Below are positions 209 to 35,006 of a DNA stretch of 35,387 bases, piece by piece (positions within the stretch are counted from its first letter, which is position 1; every line of letters starts with the position of its first letter). The notes beneath the pieces were generated by a model that worked only from the letters and a program-made list of their open reading frames with translations, made no database searches and was not told where the DNA came from. A program made the position numbers and the translations under genes. Source of the DNA: Perkinsus olseni (lineage: Eukaryota); NCBI GenBank assembly GCA_013115125.1, contig JABANN010000362.1:1-35387 (forward strand), given 5' to 3'.

Positions 209-3200
209 ATGGCGCAAGAGGTAACCACCGAAGAACCTAGCTCACCACCACATCTGAGTAAGTACTGGATAATGATGAGATTATCAATCCATTCTTATGA
301 GTAGGTAGGAGAAGGAGAGCATCACTTTGGTCCGGTCAAGTTGGCGGTGACACTTATCGAGTTGGAGATGATGTATGGATTACTCGAGATGATGAGCTTA
401 TGTTTGAGTTAGCGAAGGTAGTGTCGAGAGTATCATCTGGATAAGTACATTTGATGTGTAGGTTGTGAGTTTACCGCAAGCATCCCGTAATGATGGTCAT
501 CCTGAAGTTAGAGTCATGCCCAGATCCACCTCATCCTCGGCAGCCCGGGAACGTATGGTCCCCGTATCACAGTAGTATATGTGCACAGTGTATTATTTCA
601 ATAGTGGTGTTAGCAGGTTGTATCGAGCTGATGGTGGAAGTATTGATGTCGAAACTGTTAATGATATATCACAGTTACCTCTGGTCAATGAGCCAATAGT
701 AAATGATGTTATTAGGAGAAGGTATCTTAGTGACAGCATGTGAGTATGATGATAATAATAATGATACCACACCACCACCGCCAGTAGTATTGGTAGTAGT
801 ACTGGTTTGATGTAGATACACAGCCGCCCGTCCTATGCTTATTGCAGTGAATCCCTTCCGTGATCTTGACAATACAACAGCGGATATAGCTACATATTAT
901 AGGAATATGGTACCAGATGATAGGCGGATAGATGAGGTTGGGAAGAACGTTATCGACTAGGCCAGTGATGATGATGGTGATATTAGGCCGCCCCGCATAT
1001 CTTTCGGATAGCTGCACAGGCATTGACAGCTCATTATATTGGTGCTGGTCTAGTTGAAGAAGCAACGCATGATGATGACAATCTTATCATGAGTATGACG
1101 AAAGCACACTCAACATCATCATCATTGAGTGTTATGATGCAGGTGGAGGTCGAGGGTCCTCTGTAGCATCAGCCTACCAGTCCGGAGTTACTCCCGATGC
1201 TGCTGAACTGAACCTAGTAAATGGTGTGGTAGAGGCTGCTGAAGGTAACGTATCAATACTCATAAGTGGTGAGAGTGGGGCTGGAAAGACCGAGGTAATG
1301 ATATAATGATGATGGTACCGTTGCAGTAGGAGATAATGATGATGAGGATGGTCTTCTCACGTGTTCTGTCAGACATGTAAACATCTCATGAAGTTCTTCA
1401 CTGAGCCTGGTACTACGACTGCTACTGCAGACGACGAAGACTCATCATCCCTCTGCAATGCTCTCATGGCGTTCAACCCGATACTAGAGGCATTTGGCAA
1501 CGCTAAAACCTCGAGGAATGATAACTCCAGCCGATTTGGTAATGGTAGTAGCGGTAGTAACACAGGACTCTGATGCTGGGTATATTAGGTAAGCTGGTTA
1601 AACTATATTTATCACGGCCATCATCCTCGTGTGCTGCTGCTGACGACTTGCGCCATCATCCGACAGTAGCTGGAGGACAGGTCTTATCCTTCCTATTGGA
1701 GAAGAGTCGGATATGCTTGCATGAAGAGGGTCAGAGGAGGGAAGGCTTCTCTGCTGCTCATCGTCAGATAGCAACTCATCATTACAGGTGAACGTAACTA
1801 CCATATATTCTATCAGCTGCTACGTGGTGGTAGTCCTGAGCTACTAGGGCCAGGTGGCCTAGGCTTAGATCCTCAGAAGGAATCGTATAAGTATGTATAA
1901 CAGTAGTAATGCTACCTATTATGCTGCTGCTGCTGTTGTTAGAGTGTTGAATGGTCTCCTACCCTCAATAGCAGGGGTAGATGATGGTAAGGATTATCAA
2001 GTTACTATGAATGCTATGATAACACTAGGTATAGAGAATACTCAAAGTAAGTGATTCCTAAGACCAATGCTGTCTGCATCCTCTCCTACAGGGTTTGATA
2101 TATGTCGAGTATTGGCGGCTATATTACATATTGGTCAAATAGAATGGCAACAGCATCATCATGAAGGGAGTAATGTAGATGAGTCGAGTAAGGAGAGCAC
2201 CCACCACCTGTGGTCCGTACCACTGCTCTTCGCCTTCTGATCTAGCACCATGCATGCCTTCCGATGAGAATCGCTTCATCTTGGTGGCTAAGTTACTGGG
2301 TCTGCATCCTGAGGAGTTCCTCAAAGCAGTCACCGTACAGACGCGCCGACTTCCTGGCAATAATGTAGCTTTAACTGCCGGTCATGGCGGTAGTAGTACT
2401 ACGAGTTGTGGTGTAGGTGGTATTATCACCAGTATCACCACAACAGTGTAGCGATAATCTAGCCAGCATAAGCCGTTATTGCTATTCTATTATCTTCGAG
2501 TGGATTATTTGTAAGATTAACAGCAGTATATCGCCTAAGAGGGATGCTAAGCAAGATACACAACACACATTGAGGTAGTATACTCCCTTCTACCCGTCGT
2601 ATCATTATTATACGACTGAGTATTATCAGATGGGTGAGTGTATTGGACATCTTCGGTTTCGAGTCCTTCGAGTTGCATCGTAACTCACTGGAACAGTTCC
2701 TCGTCAACTTCGCCAATGAGAGGTTACAGCTATGCTTCACCCAAAGAGTCTTCGAGCTTGAGAAGAAGGTCACTACGCAGCATGATCCAACATCGCAGGA
2801 TGATGATGATAATACTATCAGTCTATTTATCAGGTATATGATGCAGAGGGTCTGTCAGGGGACAACCTTGCAGCAGAAGTTGTCAACTATGCTCCAGTGG
2901 AACCATTACTGAGGGTCTTGCAGGCTCCTAACTATGGTTGCATTAGCCATATTGAAAGTGCATGCTTACTACAGGTAGTGTTGAAGCAGTATTCCTCCAT
3001 ACTCTATCAACATTCCCTATCATCCTCATCAGACGGGTACTGATCAGTCTATAATGAACGCCTTCACCAAGGCTGGCTACCCTCTGGACCTACTCACTAC
3101 TGGTATGATACATCAACAACGGCAGAAAGCCTCCTCCTCCTCGTCATCATCCAAAGGGATGGCTAGGAAGGATAACCCAGCTGATATATTTATTATACAT

Positions 3201-6188
3201 CATACAGCGGGGAGTGTTACCTATAACATAAATGGTTTTAGAGATAAGAACATGGATCGTCTAAGTGACGATTTATATGCCCTTATATCACATACGAGTA
3301 ATGATGTATTGAAGGAAGCAGTAGCAGTAGCGTCACCATCATCAGAGGGAGCTCCTCAACAGCAGCAGCAAGGGGGTGGTGCTAGACGCTCCGCTTATAT
3401 AGCACAGAAGTTCGTGCATTCGATAGACTCCTTAATGGCTATGCTAGACCCTACTGAGGCATTCTTTGTACGCTGTGTTAAACCAAATACCCAGAAGAAG
3501 CCAAGGCTATACAATAGTCGTAATGTTGTTAGACAACTGCACAGTCTATCAGTATTCCATGCTATCAAGATGTCCAGCTGTGGCTATTGCTTCCGATTAC
3601 CTTTCCGTCAATTCATCCACCGATATCACCCTTTGAGGTTTCTAAAGGATACTAGTACCGCAACAGCAGCAGGAGCGAATGATGATGCATTATTGATGGC
3701 CATTGGTGATGGTCATGGAGAGGAAGGACAAGAGGAGTGTAGTCATCTCTTAAAGAGGTTCCTTGGTGATGATTATATGAAAGGGGCAGTACTAGGCAAG
3801 ACTATGGTATTGGCTCGGAAGGAATGTCATATGGTGTTAGAGAAGTCCTTAACTTGGGTATTATCGGGTATATTAGGACCGATAGCCACGACTATACGTA
3901 AGACACTGGACCACAAGCGGGCTTTGGAGAAGTTCATTATACGTAGTTCAAGATTGGTCACAATACAGTCTATGCTAAGGTCTTATCTTATCCGTCGTAC
4001 TGAGATGCAGAGGATTCAGTACCGTAGGAGTCTCATCACTGTAGCCCTCCTGCAGCGGAAGGTATACATGTTCCTAGTTGCGAGGGCTGCTGCTATGCAG
4101 TTACAAACGGCATCGAGGAATCTATTGGGTATGCTGGTATACGAGAGGAGACGTAAGAACCTTGAAGTTATGAATGCATCATCAGTATTACAGTCTTATG
4201 GTCGTGCTGCTTTATCAAGAGTAAGATATGAGTGCAGGAAGGAAAGTAGAATTAAGGATAGGGCTGCACGACTCATACAAGGGGCGATGAGGAAGGCCTA
4301 TACTCGACGATCATATGCTAAGAATTGGGTATGGCGTATGTTGGTATGGCCTATGAAAAGGCATTATCAAGTTAAAGTTGATGCTGCATTATTTATACAA
4401 AGTGCATGGAGAGCACATGTAGTTCGAAGGCAGAATCCGCATGTATTGAAGATGATCCAAGTAGCCCGAGAGAGGGTTTGGAGGAGGGTGATGGTAGAGC
4501 AGGCTAAGGGGCTCCTTACAGCGGTTATACAAGGCTTTATACTTAGGGCCACTATGGGTAGATATACACAGGCAGCCATTGTTATACAAACCAGGATGAG
4601 GGGTATACTCAGACCTCGGTGGATGAGGTTACAATTATCATCGGCTATCAAGATACAATCGTTATGGAGGGCTTATGTAGTAAGGGTAAGGGTTGCTATG
4701 GCGAAGGCTAGGATAGTAATAGTAGCATTAGATGGATGCAATAGACGTAGAAGGCGGGCTATGCATCATCTATGGCTTACCACGCTCCTCCAACAGTATC
4801 GTGATAGTAGTCATTCTGGATTATCAATAGTCCATCCAGAGGGTGGAGTATCCCAACAACTTATCGAAGGATACGTACACACTTACCGACATTATGGCCC
4901 CATCATGGACTTCACTGAGTTCCAGGATGGTACTCGCCGTAGCCTGGCCGTAGTATGCCGTCGAGCATCCCCATGCGTAGTAGTGTGGGGTAGTGAGCCC
5001 ATTGGTATGAGTTCATCACTACCTCAAGTGTTACCCCTTCCTAGTTGTCCTAAGCTACACTTCACCTCAGTGGATACTATCTCTTGTGGTGTCGATCATG
5101 CCTTGTTATTGGTCAAGTACAACAACACCAGTGTTATCGTAGCACTAGGGTCCAATACCCGAGGTCAGTGTGGGGTACCCAAGGACAGGCCCGAACTGCC
5201 TACTCCCGAGATAATACTCCAACCACCCGAGGATGGTAGTCGTATCACTAGCGTTGCAGCAGGACCGTTCCATAGTTTATGTACACTTAGTTCATCGTCG
5301 AATGATGGGACTATGGTATGGGGCGCTGCTGATGGGATATCCCTACCATACCACTTCCCACAGGATGTCTTCACACCAACCCCCATGCCCACTACCTTAC
5401 GCTTCAATAAAGTGTATGCCAATACTTGTGGTAATCTGGCTATCACCTCTGATGGCACTCTGGCTGCTTGGTCCGTTAATCCTAAGTTAGGAGTAATGTT
5501 GGGTCACATGGCTGGTGATGATGGTAACTTCTCCTCGCCAAAAGTAGTATCAGCTTTATCCAGCCCTATTGCTGGTGTAAGCACAGATGGTCGTAGGATC
5601 ATTGTCCTCACCAGTGATGGTGTACTATATTATTGGGGCTGTATACGATCTACTTGTATACCCGATAACCTATCAACAGCAGCACCAGGTATCATCTCTG
5701 GACGTGGTGCTTCAGCTTATGAGTGTAGGGTATTACAACCTCTTAGAGTGAATATACCTTATTATACTGCCCCTGTCGCTGAGGTGCATTTGTGTGATCA
5801 TTGCTATGGTGATAGGGTAGTGATTAGGTTGGTTGATGGAACACTACTTGGATGGGATAATATGACGATGAGATATGATACCCTGCATCCTGGGCTGTTC
5901 CAGTATAGACATGCTCACCGTGCTGAGGCAGTCCGAGTTGTACCTAGTGGTAAAGTACTGGGAGTGCTCCCTCCACACGCAGGGGTGGCCCACCATATAC
6001 AAGGGGTTAAGAAGGCTCTATCGAGGATAGAACCCGGGACCATGGATCGGAACCTACGGATACTCCCTATCAAGAGGGGTGGTGTATGTAATGCACCTGC
6101 CGTATCAAGGGCTCCAGGGCCTGATAGACGGTCCAGCCTCGTCATACGAGATCGTGTGGGAGGGAGAGTACCCCCCAGGGATAGGTAG
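209..6188 (+). CDS. Class XIV-type myosin heavy chain with about 8 IQ-like motifs and RCC1/ATS1-like tail (MyoH-like); multi-exon 5' half, single 3.1 kb terminal exon
   Basis: Spliced translation: N-terminal [21 protein letters not shown]-loop [13 protein letters not shown] (~1255-1294); [114 protein letters not shown] and [12 protein letters not shown] repeats. Start ATG 209 inferred. Confidence 0.93.
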
Positions 6189-13115: not shown

Positions 13116-14927
13116 ATGGGCGCGGGTTCGATCCTATCACCTCTCGTTTTTATCGGCGTTTCTTTTCTATTGATCAACGGATTAGTTATGGTACGTTATC
13201 ATCGTTTATCATCATCAGCTGGAGGAGGGGGTAGTGTAACAGCCGCAGTAGCAGGAGTAGGGTCATCGTCATCATCAATATCATCATCAGGAGTATCTAG
13301 CAGAGGCCAACAACAACAACAACGTAGTGGTAATATTCACAGACGATGGCAGATGACAGTAATGGTGACAGTCATACTCAGGCGGCTTAGATCATCATGA
13401 AGACCCTCTCCCCACTACTACTGATACTCGTCTATTAGCCTGGGAGGCGGCATTCGCGTTGGACTTTGGGCATAACTGGGAGAATGCTTATCTAAGTACA
13501 GCAACAGTACAAGGTCATCATCATCATGATACATCATCGTCAATACAGGATGAAGTAATAGTCTCATCATCCAACAACCACTGTTATCACTACTCATGGG
13601 CACTTAGGCCAGAGTTGCTTGGATAACACAATTGATGGGTATTCATCATCATCATGCTCGACCATCAACCTCTGCCAAGGCCACCCCCATCAACACGCAT
13701 ATCGAGGATTTACAGGTTATCATCGTTAGCTACTACTAATGGTTATGTTGACCGATCCTTTTCAGTCCATTATGAGTAATAATTTCCAGGCTTTTTCGGC
13801 CTTGGTACGTAGTTCAATACCGAATAATAATCATCTTTACACCGATGGGTATGATACCAATCATCACGATACTCATCATACGACGACGACAACAACAGCA
13901 GCAGTACAGTTGAAGGTGATGCCATAATAATAACCTTTATCATTTCTGTAGCTTGTCAGAGAACCAGATCAGAATCATCATCAAGTCAGAGTGCAAAGAG
14001 GAGGGCTACTAATAACAATGGAGGTAGTTCCAATACTCATAATAAACACCCTAGCACGGTGCCTCAGTAGCTACTACTATCAACGACAACAATGATACAC
14101 AGTCTATTCATCATGACCCGTGTATCACTGCTGCTGGACCTGTACTGCATGTTACTGGTGGTATGTTCTTACCAATCCTACACCAACCTGCTGTGAACAG
14201 TACAGCTCATAGAAGATCATCATCATCAACCCGCATAAGGTGAGAATAACCACCCACTTGCAATAGTAATAACGATTATCGTCCCCACCATGTCTTTAGA
14301 TCAACGCTCGATACTATTATGGGCCAATCAAACCGCGGTCATACTGCTGATGCTGCTCTTGATTATGACGATGATGATGATGACATCGAGTTCGTTATTG
14401 GTAGAAGTACTAAGGATCTTATCACAGCAGCAGGGAGTCCCTCATCTATGGATGATGTAGTACCATACCAATACTTCCTTCATAATGTTGATGCTCAGAA
14501 GGGCAGCGCCAGATCTACCCATCATCAACTACCATCACTCAATCTAGCTAACCTACCAGGCTCACAAGCAGTGTCTCGGAGGCATGCTGTTATACGAAGG
14601 GTAGCTAACGACAAGCTTCACACACTACCATCAGGACCAAGGTCACAACAATATCATCATCAACAACACTCCTCTAGACGTCATAAGGGGGTACAAGAGG
14701 ATGCCTACTCAAGTGACTGGATACTCATCAACAACTCACTCAATGGTAGTAGTAGTACTGCTATTATCATCATACTCAAGGTTATTACCCTGGCAGGAAC
14801 AGAGGTTGATTCGAAGATACTAAGGTCAGTAGGGGAATCAGCACCATTGTACCATGGTAGCAGCATACGTATAGGAAGACAAACATTTGCTTTTTATAAT
14901 TATTCTTCGCCACATCTACAACAATAA
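13116..14927 (+). CDS. FHA-domain protein with N-terminal hydrophobic segment and low-complexity linker
   Basis: N-terminus MGAGSILSPLVFIGVSFLLINGLVMV; C-terminal FHA signatures FVIGR..VSRRHAVI..WILINNSLNG/TEVD..LYHGSSIRIG; intervening exons (LLAWEAAFALDFGHNWENAYL) open on the same strand. Single-gene linkage inferred. Confidence 0.65.
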
Positions 14928-16967: not shown

Positions 16968-17956
16968 TTATACACACTTTAGATTGAGTATACCCGCACT
17001 TCTCGAGTGTACCTCCTTAATCTTGGTATGTTCCACTAGCGAACGAAGGTTATGCTCCCTTACACCACCTGATGGCAAAGATACCACGACCTCCGTACTA
17101 ACTCTACACACCTGCCATTATTATACTAATATCAATATTCTTCTCTGTGACATGTTGCTGGATATCTCGTAATACCTAAAGGTTGATATCATCTTCATTA
17201 TTGTCCAGTGTCTGATAATACATCCCTCCCTTCTTCAGCAGTTGAGTGGAGCCCGGAGGTAAGGACTCGTCGAACACCACAATGATGCAGTTGGTCAATA
17301 ACTCGCATGGCTGCTGCTGCTGCTGCTGCTGCTGCAGTACTACTCTGATAATGATAGGACTTCACACCCACTACCACACATCAGTACCCTCTTACTGTGG
17401 TATCAGCATCAGCATCAGCATCAGCATCAGCATCAGCATCAGCCGTTATACAGTCGATAGCCTTATGGAAGGTAACAGGCCATGGTGCTGCACATTCTAC
17501 GACCTTCGATACGGCATTGACGTCAGGAGAGGTGTTATCTTTTGATAGAGCTCCGAACTGAATAGAGATGGTTGATACTTGTGATGCCAACTAACTTCCT
17601 ACCACAACACCATCAAGTGATAGATGCTTCTTCCATGAACGTAATGTATTAAGCATGCTATCTATCTCGACTGAGGAATATATGAAATCCCCACCACGGC
17701 ATCTCAGCATCACTACGACCTCCACATTGTATTCAGAACATATCTTGATAGTATCTTTGATTAGCTCATCAGATGGGCTCAACCTGATTAGTGTTGCGTA
17801 TGGTCAGAACAGGAAGGCTTATTACCCATCAAACTCCATCTCTGAGCACAACTCAATTCTATCTGCTCCATTACTGCATGCAACCTGTACTTCCGATAAA
17901 CTGCTACAACATATCTCATAGGTTTCCACCAAGGGAGTCGCGAGTAATGATGACAT
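16968..17956 (-). CDS. CUTC: Copper homeostasis protein CutC (TIM barrel)
   Basis: YEICCSS..GADRIELCSEMEFDGLSPS; VVMLRCRGGDFIYS..EI..M; DGVVVGAL; PVTFHKAID; GVRRVLTSG; IMAGGGVR..N..EVHS. Confidence 0.93.
17402..17443. repeat. (ATCAGC)7 hexanucleotide repeat encoding (Ala-Asp)n in CutC
   Basis: Seven perfect copies; minus-strand frame reads TADADADADADADT directly after FHKAIDC. Confidence 0.9.
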
Positions 17957-18307: not shown

Positions 18308-21300
18308 TCAGCAAGTCTCTAATGATAGTAAAAAGTCTCGTAGCCTATCGCAAGCATCATTGATATCCTCTACCGATGTAGCGTATCTACCAATACATAA
18401 TCATCATCAATGATGATGATTATTATTATTACGATAGTCTAACCACGGGTTGTGTGGTGTAGAAACCTTCACCGGGTACAATAGATAAGCCTTGTGATGA
18501 GAGGAGTTGTTCGCCTGAGACACACCAGTAACAGCAATATTATGGCAATAGCAGTATTACAAAGTTGAGAAACTGCGAGTGTATCATCTCCCTTCAACTC
18601 TCTCATCTTGTTAACATAATAACCGAGATCGGGCATAGCATAGAACGCTCCTTTTGGAGGTTCTCTTGGGCAGACTACGTTTGGTATAGCCTGGAGACGA
18701 GCGAAAAGTAAATCCCTTTTATGTTGGAGTTGAGCCAGCTTCTTCTGATGCCATGATGATGGTACATCACGCAGGGCAGCCAAGCCCCCTGCTTGGGATG
18801 CCGTGCCTGATGATGATGATGATGATAGGGGGTGGCTGACTATGGTTATCATTATTCGATAGTATTATGATGATACTACATGCACAGCCAGTTATCTGAC
18901 CTAATATCTTCCCCATACCCTTTATCCATTTATCATCACTGCATACAGCATAACCCAGTCGTAAGCCAGTCATAGCGAATGCTTTAGAGAACCCTCCAAT
19001 GGTACTGACATAATATCGATAACGAATGATATCAGCAGCAGCAGCGGTGGTGGTGATGGTATTATTACATTATTCGACTCCTCACTGTTGGATTACATAT
19101 ACCTGCTAGAGTATAATGAACATCACCATCATAGACTAATCTTTCGTAACTAACTTAGGATCATAACAAGAGGGGGGGGGGGTTTCATTATTACAGATCA
19201 TCACATACCACCATGATATGGGTATGTTCCTCGAGGAGTGCCCCTATACGTATTAACCTTACACATTAGCGACATTAGCAACCCTACCAATACTAGTGAT
19301 TATTCTTACTCATCCTTCGGTATAACATGACCAGTTGGATTACATGGTGAGTTTAATAACAATACTCTAGTCTTGGGTGTGATAACCTAATGGGTGTTGG
19401 TATTAGGTGTACTCATGATACTGATGAGTATTACTGATGCTATGCTATGAGCTGTGATAGCATAGTCCGGTGAGGATGTATGAATGAAGACTGGAGTGGC
19501 GTTACACATGAGGGCCAAGTCAGGGAATGTAGGCCAACAAGGGGTTGGTATTATCATCTAAATGATACTATCACTATGACGATGATGACGATGATGGAAA
19601 TGTGGCAATGTACCTCATCTCCCGTATTAAGAATAGTCATAAGGGCAGCAGCTATGGCAGCCTTCCCACTGGCAGTGATGATGACATTACTACCATTAAT
19701 GCATTGGATATTCTTCCGCGTACCAAGATCATCAGCCACAGCTTCCCCTACATGTAATAGCGGCTACCATGATGATAATGATGATAACGAATATTATTAC
19801 TAAGTTCGAATATGCCGTTGGATGGTGAATATTTACACCCGAATCCTGATGTTAATGACGATACTATCGCTGATATAACCTTAAACATGAATAGGACATG
19901 AATCGTCGTCATGCTTCTTTGTTGTGGTTGTTGTTACCTGTGTTGGTGGTGAGAAGTCTGGTTCCCCTACCCCCAATGCACCTTGTATATCCTTACCCTG
20001 CCTCTTCAATTCTAATGCTTGTCCATGTAACCTAACGGTAGTACTTGATGGTACTCTGTTACATAAATCTGATAGACTAGTAGTATCTCCAGGGGTAGTC
20101 TGAAGACTGTGATTAACATGAGCGACGGTGGTGATGATGATGCATTACCCGTTCTTGTAACATATCTTTAACGGATTGTAGACTATTGTTGAAGGCTATG
20201 AGTTGTCGCCCAGAAGCTTTATTATATCGATATAGGCCTTTGAATAAGGCATCACTGAGTGCAATTGCAAGAGGACTAGTAGCAATACTGGACGATGATG
20301 ATGATGATGATGATGATGATGATCATTACCTATCATTGATAGTATTATGCATAAGCTTGATAAGGCTTCTGAAGCCTAATGTATCGATATTAGTAGTATG
20401 GAGTCTGGGTGTGATACCACCAAGTACCCTTCCAGTTAGATGTGTAATGAACTGTGTTGCAGCAGATATCTTATCATGTTCCGCAGTTGACATACTAACA
20501 AGTCTACATCCACATCGCTCGAATAGACTCAACCACCAACTTCTACTATCATCATCATCATCATCATCACCATGCGATGTTGGTGATGATGTGCTACCAT
20601 TACCATCATCATCATCATATACCAAGGGTAAGTTATACCAACCATATTTACCGCTATCGGGTCCAAACATCGGGTGTGTGCATAGGATACTCACGTTGGG
20701 ATAATCTTGGAACGCCTCTCTCATTATCTAAGGCAATCGTTATTGAGTGGCCATAATGATGATGATGATGATGATCCAGCTGGTGTGGAGTAGTACTACA
20801 GGAGTACTACCTGTTGTGGGTATTCCTTTACACTGCATACATCCACTAACAGGATATCCTTCCTCTTACCCCTCCCTCTTTCGGACTTCATGATTGCTGA
20901 TAGTTTATTGACAACTTCTGCAAATGATAATACTGAAGTTGCAATAACAATAATATCTGGCTTCTCATTATCCAGCATATCCTTCATATCTGGATAGTAT
21001 CTAAGGAGGACAATGCAGCATTGATCAGGAGTTATTATTATCATTACCTAATACCAAGAGTAGCAGCATGGTGAGCGCATCCAGTATCATCCTCCTTCCT
21101 GTTAGTAGCACTAAAATTGACGCTACCACCACCACCACCAGTACCACATAATCTTGTCAAGCGCTCACATAGGAATTGTGCAAACTTGCCGTATCTTAAT
21201 ATAGTGAGATGACGATATTATAATCACTGATAATAATAACGAATGATGATGATGTACCCTATGAAAGACACAGATCTCCTCTTCCCCTGATGTGGTGGTG

Positions 21301-22780
21301 GAGTGGTATGAGAAGTCTCAGGTAGGTTAGTAGGTGATCGAGTAGATGGTGATATTGTGTGGTGATAAGATGATGAGGAGGGATACACGGACAATACCTG
21401 ATATTGATGATGAGAGCACCGAAGATGATGATACGTATGATGAAACACCCACTCTAACAAAAGGGTTGAACTCCTTTAAGGTCTCTATTGCCCTGTCGAC
21501 CGCTTTATCCTGACCCGGCATCTTCAATACATCGATGTAGCATAGGTAATGATAATATCCCCCTGCCATATTCCCATGCTGTTGTGGATTGGAGTATGCT
21601 TCACCATCATCACTAGTATTATCAACTAACGATGTTTCCAGACTACCGAGAAGAAGAGGACATCAATAGTATGATGATTATGATGATGATGATGACATGC
21701 GTGTGGTACTACTTTGTCGTTTCGTCCAACATATCAGGCGGCACTGGTCTTGATTCCAATTTACATAACTGCAAGCCTCTGTGACTAAAAGCTGATAACG
21801 ATCTGTGTAGGCTACCGGGCCTGCACAACAACAACATGACTATGATGATGATTGGTATCATCCCCTTACGTATCATGGACTCTGAAGACCAAACTAACTT
21901 TAGTAGGTATAGGAGTGTTGTGCAGGGCTACGTATGGGGATGGGGCGCGGCCCAGTAATAAGAATCTTACAACAACAAAAAGAAGAAGAGTAGCAGTGAT
22001 GGCGGTATGATGATTACCTTGTATGATTAAAGCTAACATCCTGTATATCAGTATCAGCAACATGTAAGTTATAGATATCAGCCGCTAATCTGCTACTTAT
22101 AGCAGCACCAGCACCAGCAGCAGCAGCCTGTCTTGGTGTTGTTGTTGTTGTTGTTGTTGATAGCATTTTAGCTGCCCCTGCTGTATCAGAGTGTAACATT
22201 GGTTTAATATTATGTTTACGTAAATAGTGCGCACATTGTGCTAATGCTTGTGGATGGGAATATGCTACTTCAATGTCGTCTGGACTGAGCACCTTATCTT
22301 TAGTTAATAGACAATGTTTAACAGGGTAATCTAACTCCCCACGTATATACACACTACCACTGTAGCGTAGCAGTAAGTCTGAATAACAACACCATGCCTT
22401 CTTGTTATTGGTGATGATGATTATGATTATTACCATAATTAGCATGTATAGTTCCACCAAGAGTGTTCTCAATAGGTATCATGCCTAGATCCGCATGACC
22501 TGTCTTTGATGATGCTACAGCTTCGAATACATCCTCAAATGCTTCATAACCAACAGCCTGTATTCTATCTCTATCCACTTTAGGATAATGTATATTACTA
22601 CTATTACATAAATACTCGTATCTACTTAAGAGTGTAGCCCTCCTCCTCAGCCTCCTCCTGATGTTGATGTTGTTATTATTACATAGCAGCCTCGCTGTAT
22701 GCTCCCCTCTGTCCTTGGAATGCTACACGTAGTAGTGATGATGAGTTAGTGTCGGTGATAGGCTCATCATGAGTAGACAT
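18308..22780 (-). CDS. Trifunctional fusion: prephenate/arogenate dehydratase + ACT, TyrA (arogenate/prephenate) dehydrogenase, class Ib PLP aspartate/prephenate aminotransferase
   Basis: Dehydratase: VAFQGQRGAYSEAA, PIENTLGGTI, SHPQALAQC, DTAGAA, NHTRF, PGSL..LESRP, VRVLSVYP. TyrA: IGYGKFAQFL, LLVDVCSVKEYP, CTHPMFGPDSG, EHDKISAATQFITH, NDSDALFKGLYRYN. Aminotransferase: GVGEPDF, SGKAAI, LNSPCNPTG, GFSKAFAMTGLRLGY, PKGAFY, VPGEGF..VRLSYA; stop at 18308-18310. Confidence 0.9.
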
Positions 22781-22949
22781 GATGATAAGGATAATAATGA
22801 AAACTGTAAGAGCATTCGTTAACAGCAAGAGCACCATCATAACCATCACCATCAGTCCATGTTTCTAACACTGATACATGAGTATGCATAATGGTGGTAA
22901 GGTATTAACATCATTATCATGGTGGTGGTGGTGATGACGGTGGTATCAT

Positions 22950-24205: not shown

Positions 24206-24341
24206 CCGAAGGGAGTTCACACATCCAACGATTATGCTCTTTCAGAAACCGTCTAGGGTAAAAACAACACAAAATCGGAATATAATCAACAGCGCACCAA
24301 CGTCCGCAGCGGTGGGTCCACATCGTATCATACTCATCCTT

Positions 24342-25764
24342 ATGCGAAGTACTCTAAATCATTCACTGTATCATCACTATTGTTGTATGATGAGCAGCTG
24401 CCATAATCGGTATTGGGGTGGATGTACCCGCCGATTATTCATACATACATCATCATCAACTACTGCTATGAATAGTGAAAAGAATGGTAGTATGATAAGT
24501 AAACAAGGACATGATGTCATCACTACATCAACAACAACAAGCACCACCACCCAACCTAGAGTAACAGCAGATTATGAAAAAGCGTTAATGGAGTGAGTAC
24601 TAGTGGTGTCTCCAATGATCTCAATATTTATTATAGATATCGCATGAATGAACAACGTAAAAGAAAGAGAGATAGTATGGTAATAATAACAACAGTGATA
24701 ATAACATGATAACCACCGCGATGATGCTGTTCTATGATAGGGTAACATCATGTTTGGTATGTGTCTTGGTGCAGCAGTACTGTATATAGCTTCATCATTG
24801 GAAGATGTTACTAGTGTTTTACAGTAATAGCAACAGCAGTCTGATACTATCATACAAGGGTTATTATGTTGGTTTAGGTACTGTATACCACCAATGCTAG
24901 CTTCATTACCAATGAATAGTGTACAAAATATAATAACAAGGTTGGCTAGGTATGATTATCTACCAGTTGATTATAACAGCGAAGATCCGTATATGATTCA
25001 GAGCATTCAGGGTATAACATTTAACAATCCGATAGCACTATCACCTGGGATTGATGTTAATTGTGATGGGCCACATTCATTGATAAAACTAGGTTTTGGC
25101 GCTGTTGAGATTGGTACTATAACCATTGAACCGCAACAACAACAAAAAGGAGCATATGAACTACAATTGTCCGGTGCTGACGAAGATGATGATAAGAGTG
25201 TAGAAGGAGTGGTATCATCCAGAATTATGATTAATCAGGAAAATGAGGGCGGATCCCATAATATACTTCGCCGATGGTTGCGGATATTATATAATTTATC
25301 TACGGATTATAAGTCATGTATGGATAATAAAGGGAATGATGATGATGATGCTGCTGTTCGGGTGAAACGCGATATGAATACTTTCACTATACATTATCCA
25401 TCTGAAGATGATGTCCGCAATAGATGGTTAATGCTGCAAAGTGTTGGAGTACACGAGATAAGCAAAAGGCTTGATAACATTGATTTTACTCCGGATCTGG
25501 TACGTATTGGTAGAGTTGGTGTATCTATGAAAGCATCAACAACAAGAGAGGTTAGGATTGGTATTGAAGCATTAGCAGATAGAGTTCATTGGATATCGTT
25601 AGATTGTCGTCATATTGAAAATGACGTAATATCACAATCAGTCTGCTGCTGCTGCTGCTGCTGCTGCTGGACTTCTTTGTCGTAGATACCAAGAATACTA
25701 CATCTTTATCAAGCTGCATTAGCCCGGAGGAAGGACTTTGATGATCGTTATCGAAAGGAGTACG

Positions 25765-25803
<39 letters not shown>

Positions 25804-26507
25804 GAATGATATATGAGTTATACTCTTATTTTTGCAGGGTACATGATTGCAATGGGGATGAGGTCCAATTGATGCAACTACATCAACCCGCGCGGCTGTT
25901 CATCCGAGTATCCGTAAACCAGAATGATGACGCTCGGGAAGAATTGGCTAGGAAAATCGCGGAAGATGATAAGAATATCGAGGGCATAGTTATCAATGGT
26001 GCGGTATATAATAAGGATAAGAACGAAACTATTAGTGGTAGAGAAACCAGACCATTTATTAACGAATGTGTTGGTAAATGGTACAAGGAACTAAAGGGGA
26101 AGGTGATAATAATCCTATTAATATTATCACACATAATGTCAGTATCGTGTTGCTAAGGTACCTATAATAGCTTCTGGTGGTGTAATGAGAGGACATGATG
26201 CATTAGACCTCATCGAACATGGTGCATCTGTTATACAGGTAGTAGTAGTACTACTAGGACTCATGATGATGTGGGCGGCAGCAGCAGGAGCCACTGTGCT
26301 GTATAGAGTATCTGTATGATGAAGTTAGGTTTATTCGGCATTTATATTCCAAGGGCCTCAGGCAGCCAGACGATTGAAAGATCAATTATCTGATTTATTA
26401 TTGAAACGAGGATATTACAACATCGAAGAGGCGATCGGTGCCAAGCTGAAGAAGAAGAATAGTAGAAGAGTCAAGGAATTCCATCGTAAACGTATACCGT
26501 TCATAAC

Positions 26508-26511
<4 letters not shown>
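24342..26511 (+). CDS. Class 2 dihydroorotate dehydrogenase-like protein with degenerate active site
   Basis: Presequence-like N-terminus and TM helix (IMFGMCLGAAVLYIA); GITFNNPIALSPGID..LGFGAVEIGTIT.EPQ; ISGR; KVPIIASGGV..G.DALDLIEHGASVIQVYSAFIFQGP; EEAIG; stop 26509-26511. Confidence 0.85.
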
Positions 26512-30976: not shown

Positions 30977-31382
30977 TCACATAATAGTGCAGAAACATTG
31001 AGAATGCTTCCCTTTCTCCCCTGATTCACCATTATCTAACAACAACGATAATCTAAACATTATTCAAAGTATAATACAGTAGTATTATTATTACCACTTA
31101 CCTGCTTTAACAGACTTAGGTACGGCACTAACATGAATAGGTGTTGGTACGGTAGGATTCACCATTATCTATCAATAAGAACAACAACGATACTATTCAT
31201 CATACCACATCATCGCCATCATGATCATCACCAAGTTAATACTACTACCTTGCTATCTGCCAAAGTCTTATTGTCCTCTAATTCTTTGCCACCGGAGAAT
31301 ATGCGTAGCCGCCCAACCTCACTCACTGGTAAGAAATCTAATACATCATCGTTCTTGGTAGTAGTAGTATTAGTAGCGAGCG

Positions 31383-31419
<37 letters not shown>

Positions 31420-31736
31420 AATAATAATAATGAGTATTAGTGCTACTACTACCTTTAGGCCACTTCTCCTCATGCATGATTCTCTTTTTAACATCCATCA
31501 CTGTATCAGTTAACTGAGTAATAAGCAGCAGTCCATGTACTACTATGGGTAGGTTGTGTTACATTAAACTTCTCTTCTAATGCTTTACCATCATGATTAA
31601 CAAATATAAGCCTTAATGTTACCATTTTGCCACTACCATCCACTGCCTGACCATGATCATGATGATGATGATGATGATGATCTATCATAGTTGTATCGGC
31701 TGTATGCTTATCATTATATGCTGTTGTAGTAGTCAT
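30977..31736 (-). CDS. Membrane-anchored ubiquitin-fold protein (MUB/UBL3-like) with CaaX box
   Basis: VTLRLIFVN..DVKKRIMHEEKWPK..LRIFSGGKELEDNKTLADSK..PTPIHVSAVP; last exon DNGESGEKGKHSQCFCTIM*. Confidence 0.8.
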
Positions 31737-31891
31737 AATACGACAGTATAAATATCCAAATTAACTACTAGCGACAATCTATTGTAGAAGACGCGGAGGC
31801 AACCCGACGATGAACTCTTGCTCATCTTGCTACTTCTTGCACTTCCTCAACGCCACCGCGCATCCCGTCTTCTCAGAAGGTGGCTCCGCGT

Positions 31892-31913
31892 AAATCGATC
31901 ACGTGATCGATTT
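31892..31913. promoter_or_regulatory. Perfect 22-bp palindrome with central CACGTG in the divergent intergenic region
   Basis: AAATCGATCACGTGATCGATTT equals its own reverse complement; regulatory role is inferred only. Confidence 0.4.
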
Positions 31914-31995
31914 GTAAGGTTCCATCGTCGGAGATGGTCTCTAGAGTCTGGTAAAACTACGTGTGGACCGCTCATCCCTACTTATCATATAGAAG

Positions 31996-32499
31996 ATGGC
32001 TCCTAAGTTCGACCCCAACGAGATCAAGATCATCTACGTCCGTCAGTATGGCGGTGAGGTTGGTGCCTCCTCCGTCCTCGCCCCGAAAGTCGGCCCTATC
32101 GGTATGTCTCCCAAGAAGATTGGTGAGGATATTCAGAAGGCTTCTCAGGACTGGAAGGGAATCAAGATTACTGCTCAGTTGGCTGTCCAGAATCGTAAGG
32201 CTACTGTTACCATCAAGCCTACTGCCACCTCCCTCCTTATTAAGGAATTGAAGGAACCTCTTCGTGATAGGAAGAAGACTAAGGATATCAAGCATAATGG
32301 TAACCTTACTATCGAACAGGTATTGGGTGTTGCTAAGAAGATGCGTGCTACCTCTATGGCTAAGGAGTTCAAGGGTACTGTTAAGGAGGTCCTCGGTACC
32401 TGCCGTGCTATTGGATGCAGCGTTGGCGGCCGCAGCCCTCAAGAATGGCAGAATGACATTGATACCGGTGATTTCGTTCCCGAGGAGCCATCTGATTAA
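31996..32499 (+). CDS. RPL12: 60S ribosomal protein L12 (uL11), intronless CDS
   Basis: MAPKFDPNEIKIIYVRQYGGEVGASSVLAPKVGPIGMSPKKIGEDI..KEPLRDRKKTKDIKHNGNL..GTVKEVLGTC. Confidence 0.98.
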   Translation: MAPKFDPNEIKIIYVRQYGGEVGASSVLAPKVGPIGMSPKKIGEDIQKASQDWKGIKITAQLAVQNRKATVTIKPTATSLLIKELKEPLRDRKKTKDIKHNGNLTIEQVLGVAKKMRATSMAKEFKGTVKEVLGTCRAIGCSVGGRSPQEWQNDIDTGDFVPEEPSD

Positions 32500-32681: not shown

Positions 32682-34347
32682 ATGAGCAAGCATCATGTTA
32701 ATGAAGAGGACGATAATATCAAAGCCTCTGCTGCCGAGTATGTCCCCTTTGAGGATTATCAGAAGGATATAATAACCTTGAGGGTAACTTGACGTATATA
32801 TGTAATATCCAATAGGGTCCTCCAACTGTTTCATAGGCACAGGCAGCTGCAGCATCAGCGACACCAGGGACTGATCATCATGGGGATGATGAAGGTGAAG
32901 ATAATAACATTACTTCACACCCAACAGCCCCTACCAATCCTTCAACAACAACAACACCACCAGCAGCAGGAGCAGCGGCACTGGTATCATCTAGATCCCT
33001 ACCTAATATACATGATGTAATAGTAGTGTTGTTATTAGTCGTTTTATTATAGTAGTATTATCAGACCGATGCATTGACAGCATCTGATATCGCCAAACCT
33101 GGTGGATTCAGACGTCATTACATCCAGGCAACAACAACAACTTCGCCTAACAACAACAATGATGATGATGATGGCATATTGACAAACACACCGGAGGAGA
33201 GTAATAGTAGACAAACACCACTAGTAGAGAATAGTAGTAATGCTGGCAATGATCTAAAAGTACCACTACTATCACTCCCCGAGGATAATAATAATAACAA
33301 TACTGGTACAGTACCCAAGAGACGCGATAACAAGGTAATATGTTAGTGTTGTTGTTTATTCTTGGACCTATAACCTTAGGATGATGTTACGCCAAGGCCG
33401 ACGTCGTTTGATGATGATTATCATGATAATAATGGAGATGGTGGTAGTTCCAATATCGACATTAATAGTCCAGCTATTGATGATGAAGATGAGAATCACG
33501 AGGCATTGAAGGAGTCTATTATGGATAACTTGACATACATGTTCGATTTCTTCACAGATGTTGAAAATAATAATGGTTACGATGACGATAGAGGTAGTAG
33601 TAGTAGTATAAGTTGGTGATGTATTATTATTATCTTATGTGGCTCCTCATAGGTGGCTTGTTTGATGATAGAACTTCAAAAGAACTGGCGTTACGTGTGC
33701 GGCCTCATAAAAAGAGCGGTATTATTAAAACGGTAATAGCACTAACAATCATGATAATAATAATACTATTATTATTACCAAACAGATATTGTCAATTTTC
33801 AAGTCCTTCATTGGTGTTGGTATCTTATTCTTGCCTAATGCGTTTCATAATGGTGGATGGTTATTCAGTTGTTTATGTATGATATTATCAGCATTATTAT
33901 CAACTATTGGAATGTATAAATTAAGTTCATGTCATGAGAGAACGCATAAGACATATCCGCAAATGGGCTATGTAGCATATGGTACTATTGGTTATTATAC
34001 CATATCATTCCAGCTAGCACTCAGCCAATTCTGTTTTGGTATAACAGGTGTTATATACATCACAAATACTCTGAGTAATAATAATAATACTGTCATCGTT
34101 GTTGTTATAATACCTATGTCGTTGTTATCAGGTCATATAGTAGCATGTATAGTATCCGGTGATATCTCAGAAGATGCCGGTGTTAGTGAGAGTGTTAGAG
34201 AAGGATTAGCTACCAACTATGATAAGATAGTACATGCCTTCTATGTTATAGTACTTCTTACGTATATACCATTATCCTTCATAAGACGGATTGGTAATAT
34301 GAAGTTTACTAACTTGGTAATAATAATAACGACAACAACAACAACAA

Positions 34348-34416
<69 letters not shown>

Positions 34417-34750
34417 CAATAGGACATAAGCATTTGTTGTTGTCAGGTCGGTGATCTATGTATCTTACTCGCAGTAATATTTGTTTTGATTGCTGCATGT
34501 AGGACACTTTCATCTAATGGTATAGCAGATAATGTTAAAGCTATAGAAGGGGATAGGATGTTGTCATTTATTGGTACTGCTGTATACTCTTTTGAAGGCA
34601 TTGGCCTGGTAATACCAATACGTGAGAGTATGGCCAAACCACAATATTTCAATATTCTACTGAGTTGTATGATCACCTTCATGGGCCTCATGCTATGTGC
34701 TTTTGGGTTGATAGCATATCTGGCCTGGGGACCGACGGTTGAACCAGTGG

Positions 34751-34808
<58 letters not shown>

Positions 34809-35006
34809 CTGTTGTTGTTGTGATAATGATACATAGCATACACATGACATTACCATTATCTTCTTCTTCTTGTTATTGTTCTCCCTATTGATAGGTCCTC
34901 AATCAATTACCGGTCACACCAACATCTATAGTTATACAGTTATTATACTGTCTTGCTGTAACATGCACATTCCCGATAACATTGTACTACTACGACTACT
35001 ATTCTC

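Follow-up and report, generated by a model that had tools for sequence, protein, structure and literature searches.

The window, which is the whole stretch of 35,387 nucleotides of DNA from the shellfish parasite Perkinsus olseni analysed here, contains at positions 24342-26511 one gene of eight exons, which encodes a DHODH-like protein of 575 amino acid residues without internal stop codons. Its seven introns are of the GT-AG type and are 44-90 nt long. Also located in the window are a gene for a myosin that has IQ motifs and, at its C-terminus, an RCC1-like domain (1346-6185, plus strand), an FHA-domain gene (14250-14924, plus strand), a CutC gene (17200-17803, minus strand) and an amino-acid transporter gene (33729-34833, plus strand). 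Exons for prephenate dehydratase, a prephenate-dehydrogenase-like protein and an aminotransferase are arranged head to tail at 18470-22870 on the minus strand and possibly represent a fused or clustered gene of the Phe/Tyr pathway; THPMFGP is presumably the motif of the prephenate-dehydrogenase-like exon. The region 31000-32496 contains an intronless gene for cytosolic RPL12, with a single match in the genome; this gene and a UBL3-like gene are in head-to-head arrangement. RPL12 and UBL3-like genes are also neighbours in the part of the P. marinus data that was covered.

The predicted introns of the DHODH-like gene are absent from the contigs of three public runs, one per study, among the four runs aligned. 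These runs carry no RNA label on record, and their contigs are regarded as mRNA because they are intron-free. All six listed splice joints are present in the contigs of X1 and X16, and five of the six in those of X15; one listed joint spans both of the introns that flank the 74-nt exon 5. The 748-nt exon 4 is read through unspliced in the contigs of all three runs, and the presence of an in-frame intron inside this exon is thereby ruled out. Only three reads fall on the gene in the fourth run, X21, which consists of raw reads. No sequence difference between the aligned runs and the gene is listed. The preliminary description of this DNA, made from the sequence alone, regarded the open reading frame and the splice sites as intact, and the splicing seen in three studies agrees with this view.

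The annotated product retrieved by the homologue search, FOZ61_006174 of Perkinsus olseni (P0001, 474 residues), begins at Met102 of the 575-residue model. This NCBI model omits the first two exons (101 residues; 24342-24740), both of which are spliced in according to the transcript contigs, and their omission conceals a presequence-like N-terminus, in which the first 40 residues include four Arg/Lys, eleven Ser/Thr and no Asp/Glu. At the other end of the protein, the C-terminal tail has a net charge of +9. The positions of the exons and motifs are summarized in Table 1, together with that of a second DHODH gene of the same genome.

Table 1. Positions of exons and motifs of the DHODH-like gene in the window, and of the second DHODH gene (last line)
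Feature	Position	Strand	Basis or remark
Exon 1, start codon and presequence-like N-terminus	24342..24592	+	Contigs begin at 24316/24318; not in NCBI model
Exon 2, basic stretch ahead of TM helix	24637..24679	+	Model and contigs
Exon 3, predicted TM helix (about residues 99-119), D120	24741..24823	+	D120 in 18/22 dead rows
Exon 4, membrane helices, linker, barrel strands 1-4, lineage-specific insert	24878..25625	+	Contigs, AF2
NSVQ, quinone-tunnel His position (Pf H185) = Gln142	24915..24926	+	His in 5/22 dead rows
Linker motif LPxDYxxxDPY, residues 154-164	24960..24992	+	Linker identity from accessible part of PMC7762340
SPGIDVN, Pf K229 position = Val186	25041..25061	+	Lys in 0/22 dead rows
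Insert of ~75 residues in place of PRxFR/NRxGFN lid	25137..25361	+	Low pLDDT
SLDCRHI, catalytic loop; Pf N342, S345, P346 and N347 all replaced	25596..25616	+	Alignment
Exon 5	25686..25759	+	74 letters between joints
Exon 6, IRVSVN (25902-25919), NGAV (25995-26006), retained SG motif	25838..26102	+	Alignment
Exon 7, retained ASGGV phosphate-binding loop, E508	26158..26238	+	E508 in 21/22 dead rows
Exon 8, retained YS, last helix with R529 and K532, basic C-terminal tail, stop	26329..26511	+	Alignment
Motif-complete class 2 DHODH with Cys base	G000:C222 about 39300-41900; L006 1800-4402	-	Predicted model

The AlphaFold2 model of the protein, built with a 26-row alignment, has a mean pLDDT of 85.8, with low values in the insert alone. 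Its best structural match is P. falciparum DHODH (6i4b; Z 45.9, rmsd 2.4 A over 352 residues), and all of the best 50 structural matches listed are class 2 DHODHs. The top PDB match by sequence is Eimeria DHODH (1e-37), followed by the Plasmodium, rat and human enzymes. The protein also passes PF01180 with 93.6 bits against a cut-off of 27. The class 2 scaffold proposed in the preliminary description is borne out by the Z score and the Pfam match. A TM segment is predicted as proposed, but its hydrophobicity is only moderate (19-residue Kyte-Doolittle mean of 1.68).

To locate the replaced residues, the protein was aligned with MAFFT and numbered according to P. falciparum DHODH (P0109). Replacements relative to the P. 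falciparum protein are H185 by Q142, K229 by V186, N342 by D368, S345 by H371, N347 by E373, K429 by R423, N458 by G454 and T459 by A455. None of K229, N274, N458 and T459, which we take to be orotate/FMN residues, is kept, and of H185 and R265, which are presumably the His and Arg of the quinone tunnel, the His is lost. PRxFR is absent. In contrast to these replaced motifs, S477-G478, S505-G506-G507 and Y528-S529 are kept, as are T249 and a basic residue at the position of K429. The catalytic Ser is S345, a numbering confirmed in the accessible part of PMC6611227. Every motif quoted in the preliminary description (SPGIDVN, SLDCRHI, IRVSVN, NGAV and NSVQ) is present in the gene, and the alignment with Plasmodium DHODH confirms that the catalytic residues are replaced rather than intact: V186 and H371 fall on K229 and S345, as expected from the proposed changes of AAGFDKN to SPGIDVN and of the NVSSPNT loop to SLDCRHI, and the motifs retained at the C-terminus would still match an FMN-phosphate region. 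The proposed change of NRYGFNS to NRWLMLQS is correct as to the loss of the motif but ambiguous as to its mapping, because an insert of about 75 residues occupies the expected site of the PRxFR/NRxGFN lid and MAFFT places the motif elsewhere. The NRW stretch is not conserved in P0093, the closest relative.

A search of 1.84 billion representatives yielded 3360 matches, of which the best 150 are listed. In a FastTree of 237 rows of at least 300 residues, derived from these matches and P0001, a clade of 21 rows lacks the DHODH motifs. The 22 rows designated here as dead rows are those of this clade, with the 575-residue model replacing P0001, and the fragment P0093; the counts leave out the fragments P0094, P0104, P0130 and P0233. 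K229, R262, G277, K314, N342, N347 and N458 are kept in none of the 22 dead rows, S345 in two, H185 in five, and R265, N274 and T459 in one each. In contrast, K229, R262, N342, N347 and N458 are kept in all active rows of the three groups compared (11/11 apicomplexan-like, 26/26 other eukaryote-like and 14/14 bacteria-like), and K429 in 10/11, 26/26 and 14/14 of them, respectively. Because the same columns are kept across the active rows, the loss is not a matter of chance. Among the residues in the S345 column of the dead rows are H, N, A, N, K and Q, without a conserved replacement.

P155, D157, D162 and Y164 of the linker, which connects the membrane domain to the barrel, and R529 are present in 22/22 dead rows, and E508 and K532 in 21/22. 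In the dead clade, no element is better conserved than the linker LPxDYxxxDPY, which is a candidate interaction surface. In 19/22 rows the tail was measured as basic, with a charge of +5 to +10; in the other three, one of them a fragment, no tail was detected by the script. The identity within each of the two dead subgroups is 23-57%, and that between the subgroups is about 25%. In most of the other dead rows the lid region is deleted rather than replaced by an insert. The window protein and P0093 are identical at 61/75 and 67/89 barrel positions (75-81%) but at only 13/69 positions of the insert (19%), indicating that the dead form is under purifying selection. The SG and SGG positions and Y528 persist in P0095, P0096 and the window protein. 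In the 16-row subgroup, Y528 and S477 are each found in 0/16 rows, and T249 is replaced by Pro in 15/16. This subgroup appears to be dinoflagellate-like, as judged from its position as sister to the Perkinsus-containing subgroup and its high GARP/FYMINK ratio (1.4-3.0). Relatives that share the loss do exist as a 22-row clade, in which the dinoflagellate-like label of 16 rows is an inferred one.

TIGR01036 scores, for which the equivalog cut-off is 200, separate the two types: the window protein scores 111.7 bits and all five dead rows tested fail with 90-112, whereas all three active rows tested pass with 319-356. A profile of the dead clade has Eimeria DHODH as its top PDB match (3.5e-65), and no member of the clade is found among the best 60 PDB matches of either the protein or the profile. 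By its defining residues, the predicted protein is outside the class 2 DHODH enzyme family (EC 1.3.5.2), though it is descended from this family. The dead-clade members retrieved by the profile search are P0163 (JGI, a 1443-nt contig), P0001 and P0093 alone. In the Atlas, fungal DHODH clusters were the sole matches under 0.9, and no match of use was obtained for C222. The 80 loci given by a metagenome scan all have the FDK motif; none is a member of the dead clade, and the scan detected no spliced leader. No published description of the dead clade was found in a literature search, which most subscription papers lie outside, and no dead DHODH was found in the accessible parts of the Plasmodium complexome and ATAD3 preprints, an Amoebophrya paper and a Toxoplasma review.

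In an IQ-TREE analysis of 35 rows, the dead rows form one clade (99/96), which is grouped with nine apicomplexan-like active rows (100/98). A similar grouping is obtained with 41 rows (98/97, with the bootstrap not fully settled) and in a quick search of 63 rows under LG+C20 (SH-aLRT of 99 and 99), in trees that, like the 35-row tree, left out seven other degenerate sequences. In the FastTree of 237 rows, the dead clade is joined to five other degenerate sequences and not to apicomplexans. When all seven degenerate rows are added, the apicomplexan grouping is recovered (94/98), and the long-branch alternative is not rejected (p-AU 0.16). D157, L154, E508 and L333 are found in 82-100% of the apicomplexan-like active rows but in 35% or less of other DHODHs, and these shared signature residues favour common ancestry with apicomplexan DHODH; K532 is likewise found in 82-100% of the former. 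The label apicomplexan-like is mostly inferred, with P0002 (Plasmodium) as the sole row with a source name; P0109 is nearly identical to P0002 and matches P. falciparum PDB chains. These results indicate that the dead clade probably shares ancestry with apicomplexan DHODH. P0117, P0236, P0123 and P0159 form a separate second DHODH-like clade (97/90), which lacks the FDK Lys and the SSPNT loop and has no long N-terminal extension.

The genome contains at least two PF01180 loci, the gene in the window and C222. The predicted C222 product is a protein of 462 residues with an N-terminal hydrophobic segment, encoded with 11 introns, one of which is GC-AG, as read from the sequence. AU tests reject both the union of C222 with the dead clade (p 0.00075) and its placement inside the myzozoan clade (p 0.034), and a Perkinsus-specific duplication as the origin of C222 is thereby ruled out. 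A stretch of C222 fetched 75 prokaryote loci, and among the 60 near-full ORFs, 44 have the Cys base. In a tree with the 16 best prokaryote rows, which were chosen for their likeness to C222, C222 is sister to 13 Cys-base rows (99/91), with eukaryote relatives of C222 outside the sampling. It is thus very likely that C222 has a separate, prokaryote-like origin, and C222 is a likely case of prokaryote-to-Perkinsus transfer. A canonical paralogue, for which the preliminary description proposed a search, is present in the sense that a motif-complete DHODH exists, but paralogy is not favoured by the trees. ATC-like and OMPDC-like exons are also found in the genome, and OPRT is found in the P. marinus proteome.

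C5K5A0, the sole named DHODH in the accessible complexome tables of P. marinus, peaks in slice 14 (~37 kDa apparent) and slice 15 (two replicates), which corresponds to monomer size (PMC13623125). Its synteny with a polyprenyl synthase is suggestive of C5K5A0 being the C222 orthologue. The search for the dead gene's orthologue in P. marinus found none in the supplement rows listed, possibly because it is unannotated (PMC13623125). In the same tables, as far as accessible, IDs for the amino-acid transporter, RPL12, UBL3 and the aminotransferase are present and no candidate for the dead gene is found between them, and the accessible main text does not mention a dead DHODH.

The gene in the window is a real, conserved, intact and spliced gene and, as read from its sequence, encodes a DHODH-derived pseudoenzyme. 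Its retention as a pseudoenzyme rather than a pseudogene, as the preliminary description put it, is supported by the splicing, the constrained barrel, the loss common to a deep clade and the motif-complete second DHODH. The protein almost certainly does not oxidize dihydroorotate. The Perkinsus form may hold FMN structurally, and the 16-row subgroup is probably without FMN. We consider it rather likely that the ancestral myzozoan DHODH has been kept as a membrane scaffold after the prokaryote-like C222 took over catalysis. According to this scheme, the separately acquired Cys-base enzyme would have taken over orotate synthesis, and the ancestral apicomplexan-type protein would have stayed. The presequence would direct import into mitochondria, and the TM and amphipathic helices would anchor the protein in the inner mitochondrial membrane, as in class 2 DHODHs. 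The invariant linker, the face of the last helix (E508, R529 and K532) and the basic tail would bind a partner protein or an anionic lipid, and the scaffold would support the respiratory chain or membrane integrity. D157, L154, E508 and L333 are common to active apicomplexan-like rows, suggesting that this surface predates the catalytic loss; a scaffold role older than this loss would explain the survival of the gene after displacement.

A second function of DHODH has been reported for Toxoplasma. The DHODH null fails even when uracil is supplied, and auxotrophs carrying a catalytically deficient replacement are viable (PMC8345934, second-hand in its accessible part). This essential function is independent of pyrimidines and unknown in nature (PMC6611227), and the non-catalytic role is called unknown in the accessible text of both the 2019 and the 2021 papers (PMC6611227, PMC8345934). 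The accessible part of PMC13232951 words the Toxoplasma result the opposite way. The same part reports that knock-down of P. falciparum DHODH in blood stages is fully rescued by uracil salvage (PMC13232951), indicating that the second role is not a general one. Toxoplasma DHODH migrates below 140 kDa (PMC7987180, in part) and Eimeria DHODH is monomeric (PMC7762340, in part), so that no large stable DHODH complex is known. Tentatively, the DHODH orthologue of perkinsids and dinoflagellates might be only a non-catalytic scaffold, whose linker, helix face and tail carry the Toxoplasma second function. If so, the two functions of DHODH would be naturally separated, and the dead clade, stripped of catalytic requirements, would provide a short, directly testable list of invariant surface residues.

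Other explanations of the retained gene are less likely. The protein might be a repurposed flavoprotein that still binds FMN and quinone and either oxidizes a different substrate or acts as a quinone-pool sensor. In its favour, SG, SGG and Y528 are retained in P0095, P0096 and the window protein, and the last of these also has T249 and, at the K429 position, a basic residue; it is nonetheless unlikely, given that the catalytic positions have no conserved replacement residue, that the 16-row subgroup has lost Y528, S477 and mostly T249, and that R265 and H185 are rare in the dead rows. A distinctly unlikely alternative is that the dead protein binds the C222 DHODH and activates, stabilizes or anchors it, as dead paralogues activate enzymes in trypanosomatids (PMC3663545, in part). 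The two genes do share one genome, but they differ in origin, and C5K5A0, the putative C222 orthologue by synteny, is found at monomer size in the accessible tables, where the detergent could break a weak complex.

It is very unlikely that the protein gained a new role after the catalytic loss that is unrelated to the Toxoplasma second function, such as binding of nucleic acid or import machinery via its tail. Y158, D162 and Y164 are near-invariant in the dead rows and present in 18-27% of active apicomplexan-like rows, the tails of the dead rows are longer and more basic, and Plasmodium is reported, in sources covered in part, to be without an essential second role, all of which would fit a new role; D157, L154, E508, K532 and L333, by contrast, are common to 82-100% of active apicomplexan-like rows. 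Finally, a recently decaying gene or pseudogene would fit the long branch and the poorly conserved insert, and is compatible with the lack of an identified P. marinus orthologue in the accessible complexome tables. It is nevertheless extremely unlikely, since the frame is intact and spliced, the core is far better conserved than the insert, and the loss is common to 22 sequences with about 25% identity between subgroups. Retention as a membrane scaffold is therefore the reading preferred here.

DHODH is a malaria drug target, and the working Perkinsus enzyme is apparently a prokaryote-like cysteine DHODH, which matters for reading drug-sensitivity data. Annotation as DHODH can point to the wrong gene in these lineages, since Pfam passes the dead protein.

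The window protein has its nearest active relatives in the IQ-TREE trees among the apicomplexan class 2 DHODHs (Eimeria 6aj5 and P. falciparum 6i4b/1tv5; PF01180, TIGR01036), with which it shares the fold, the TM and membrane helices, the linker motif, the C-terminal helix and the phosphate loop. It differs from them by substitutions at the orotate, catalytic and quinone positions. The group closest to C222 is formed by the Cys-base class 2 DHODHs of the Patescibacteria/DPANN type (L097, L122, L091 and others), and it bears on C222, not on the gene in the window; C222 differs from them by its 11 introns and N-terminal hydrophobic segment. The situation in Perkinsus resembles that of Toxoplasma DHODH, in which a catalytically deficient protein is still needed. 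In Toxoplasma, a single protein has both roles and its dead allele is an engineered one, whereas in Perkinsus the dead form is natural and fixed, and catalysis is assigned to a separate gene. It also resembles the trypanosomatid prozymes, such as the dead paralogue of deoxyhypusine synthase that activates the enzyme (PMC3663545, in part), in that a protist has a conserved dead homologue as well as an active enzyme. The prozymes, unlike the Perkinsus pair, are paralogues of their enzymes and form stable complexes with them, whereas the two Perkinsus proteins would differ in origin, and the P. marinus protein taken to be the orthologue of the active one migrates at monomer size.
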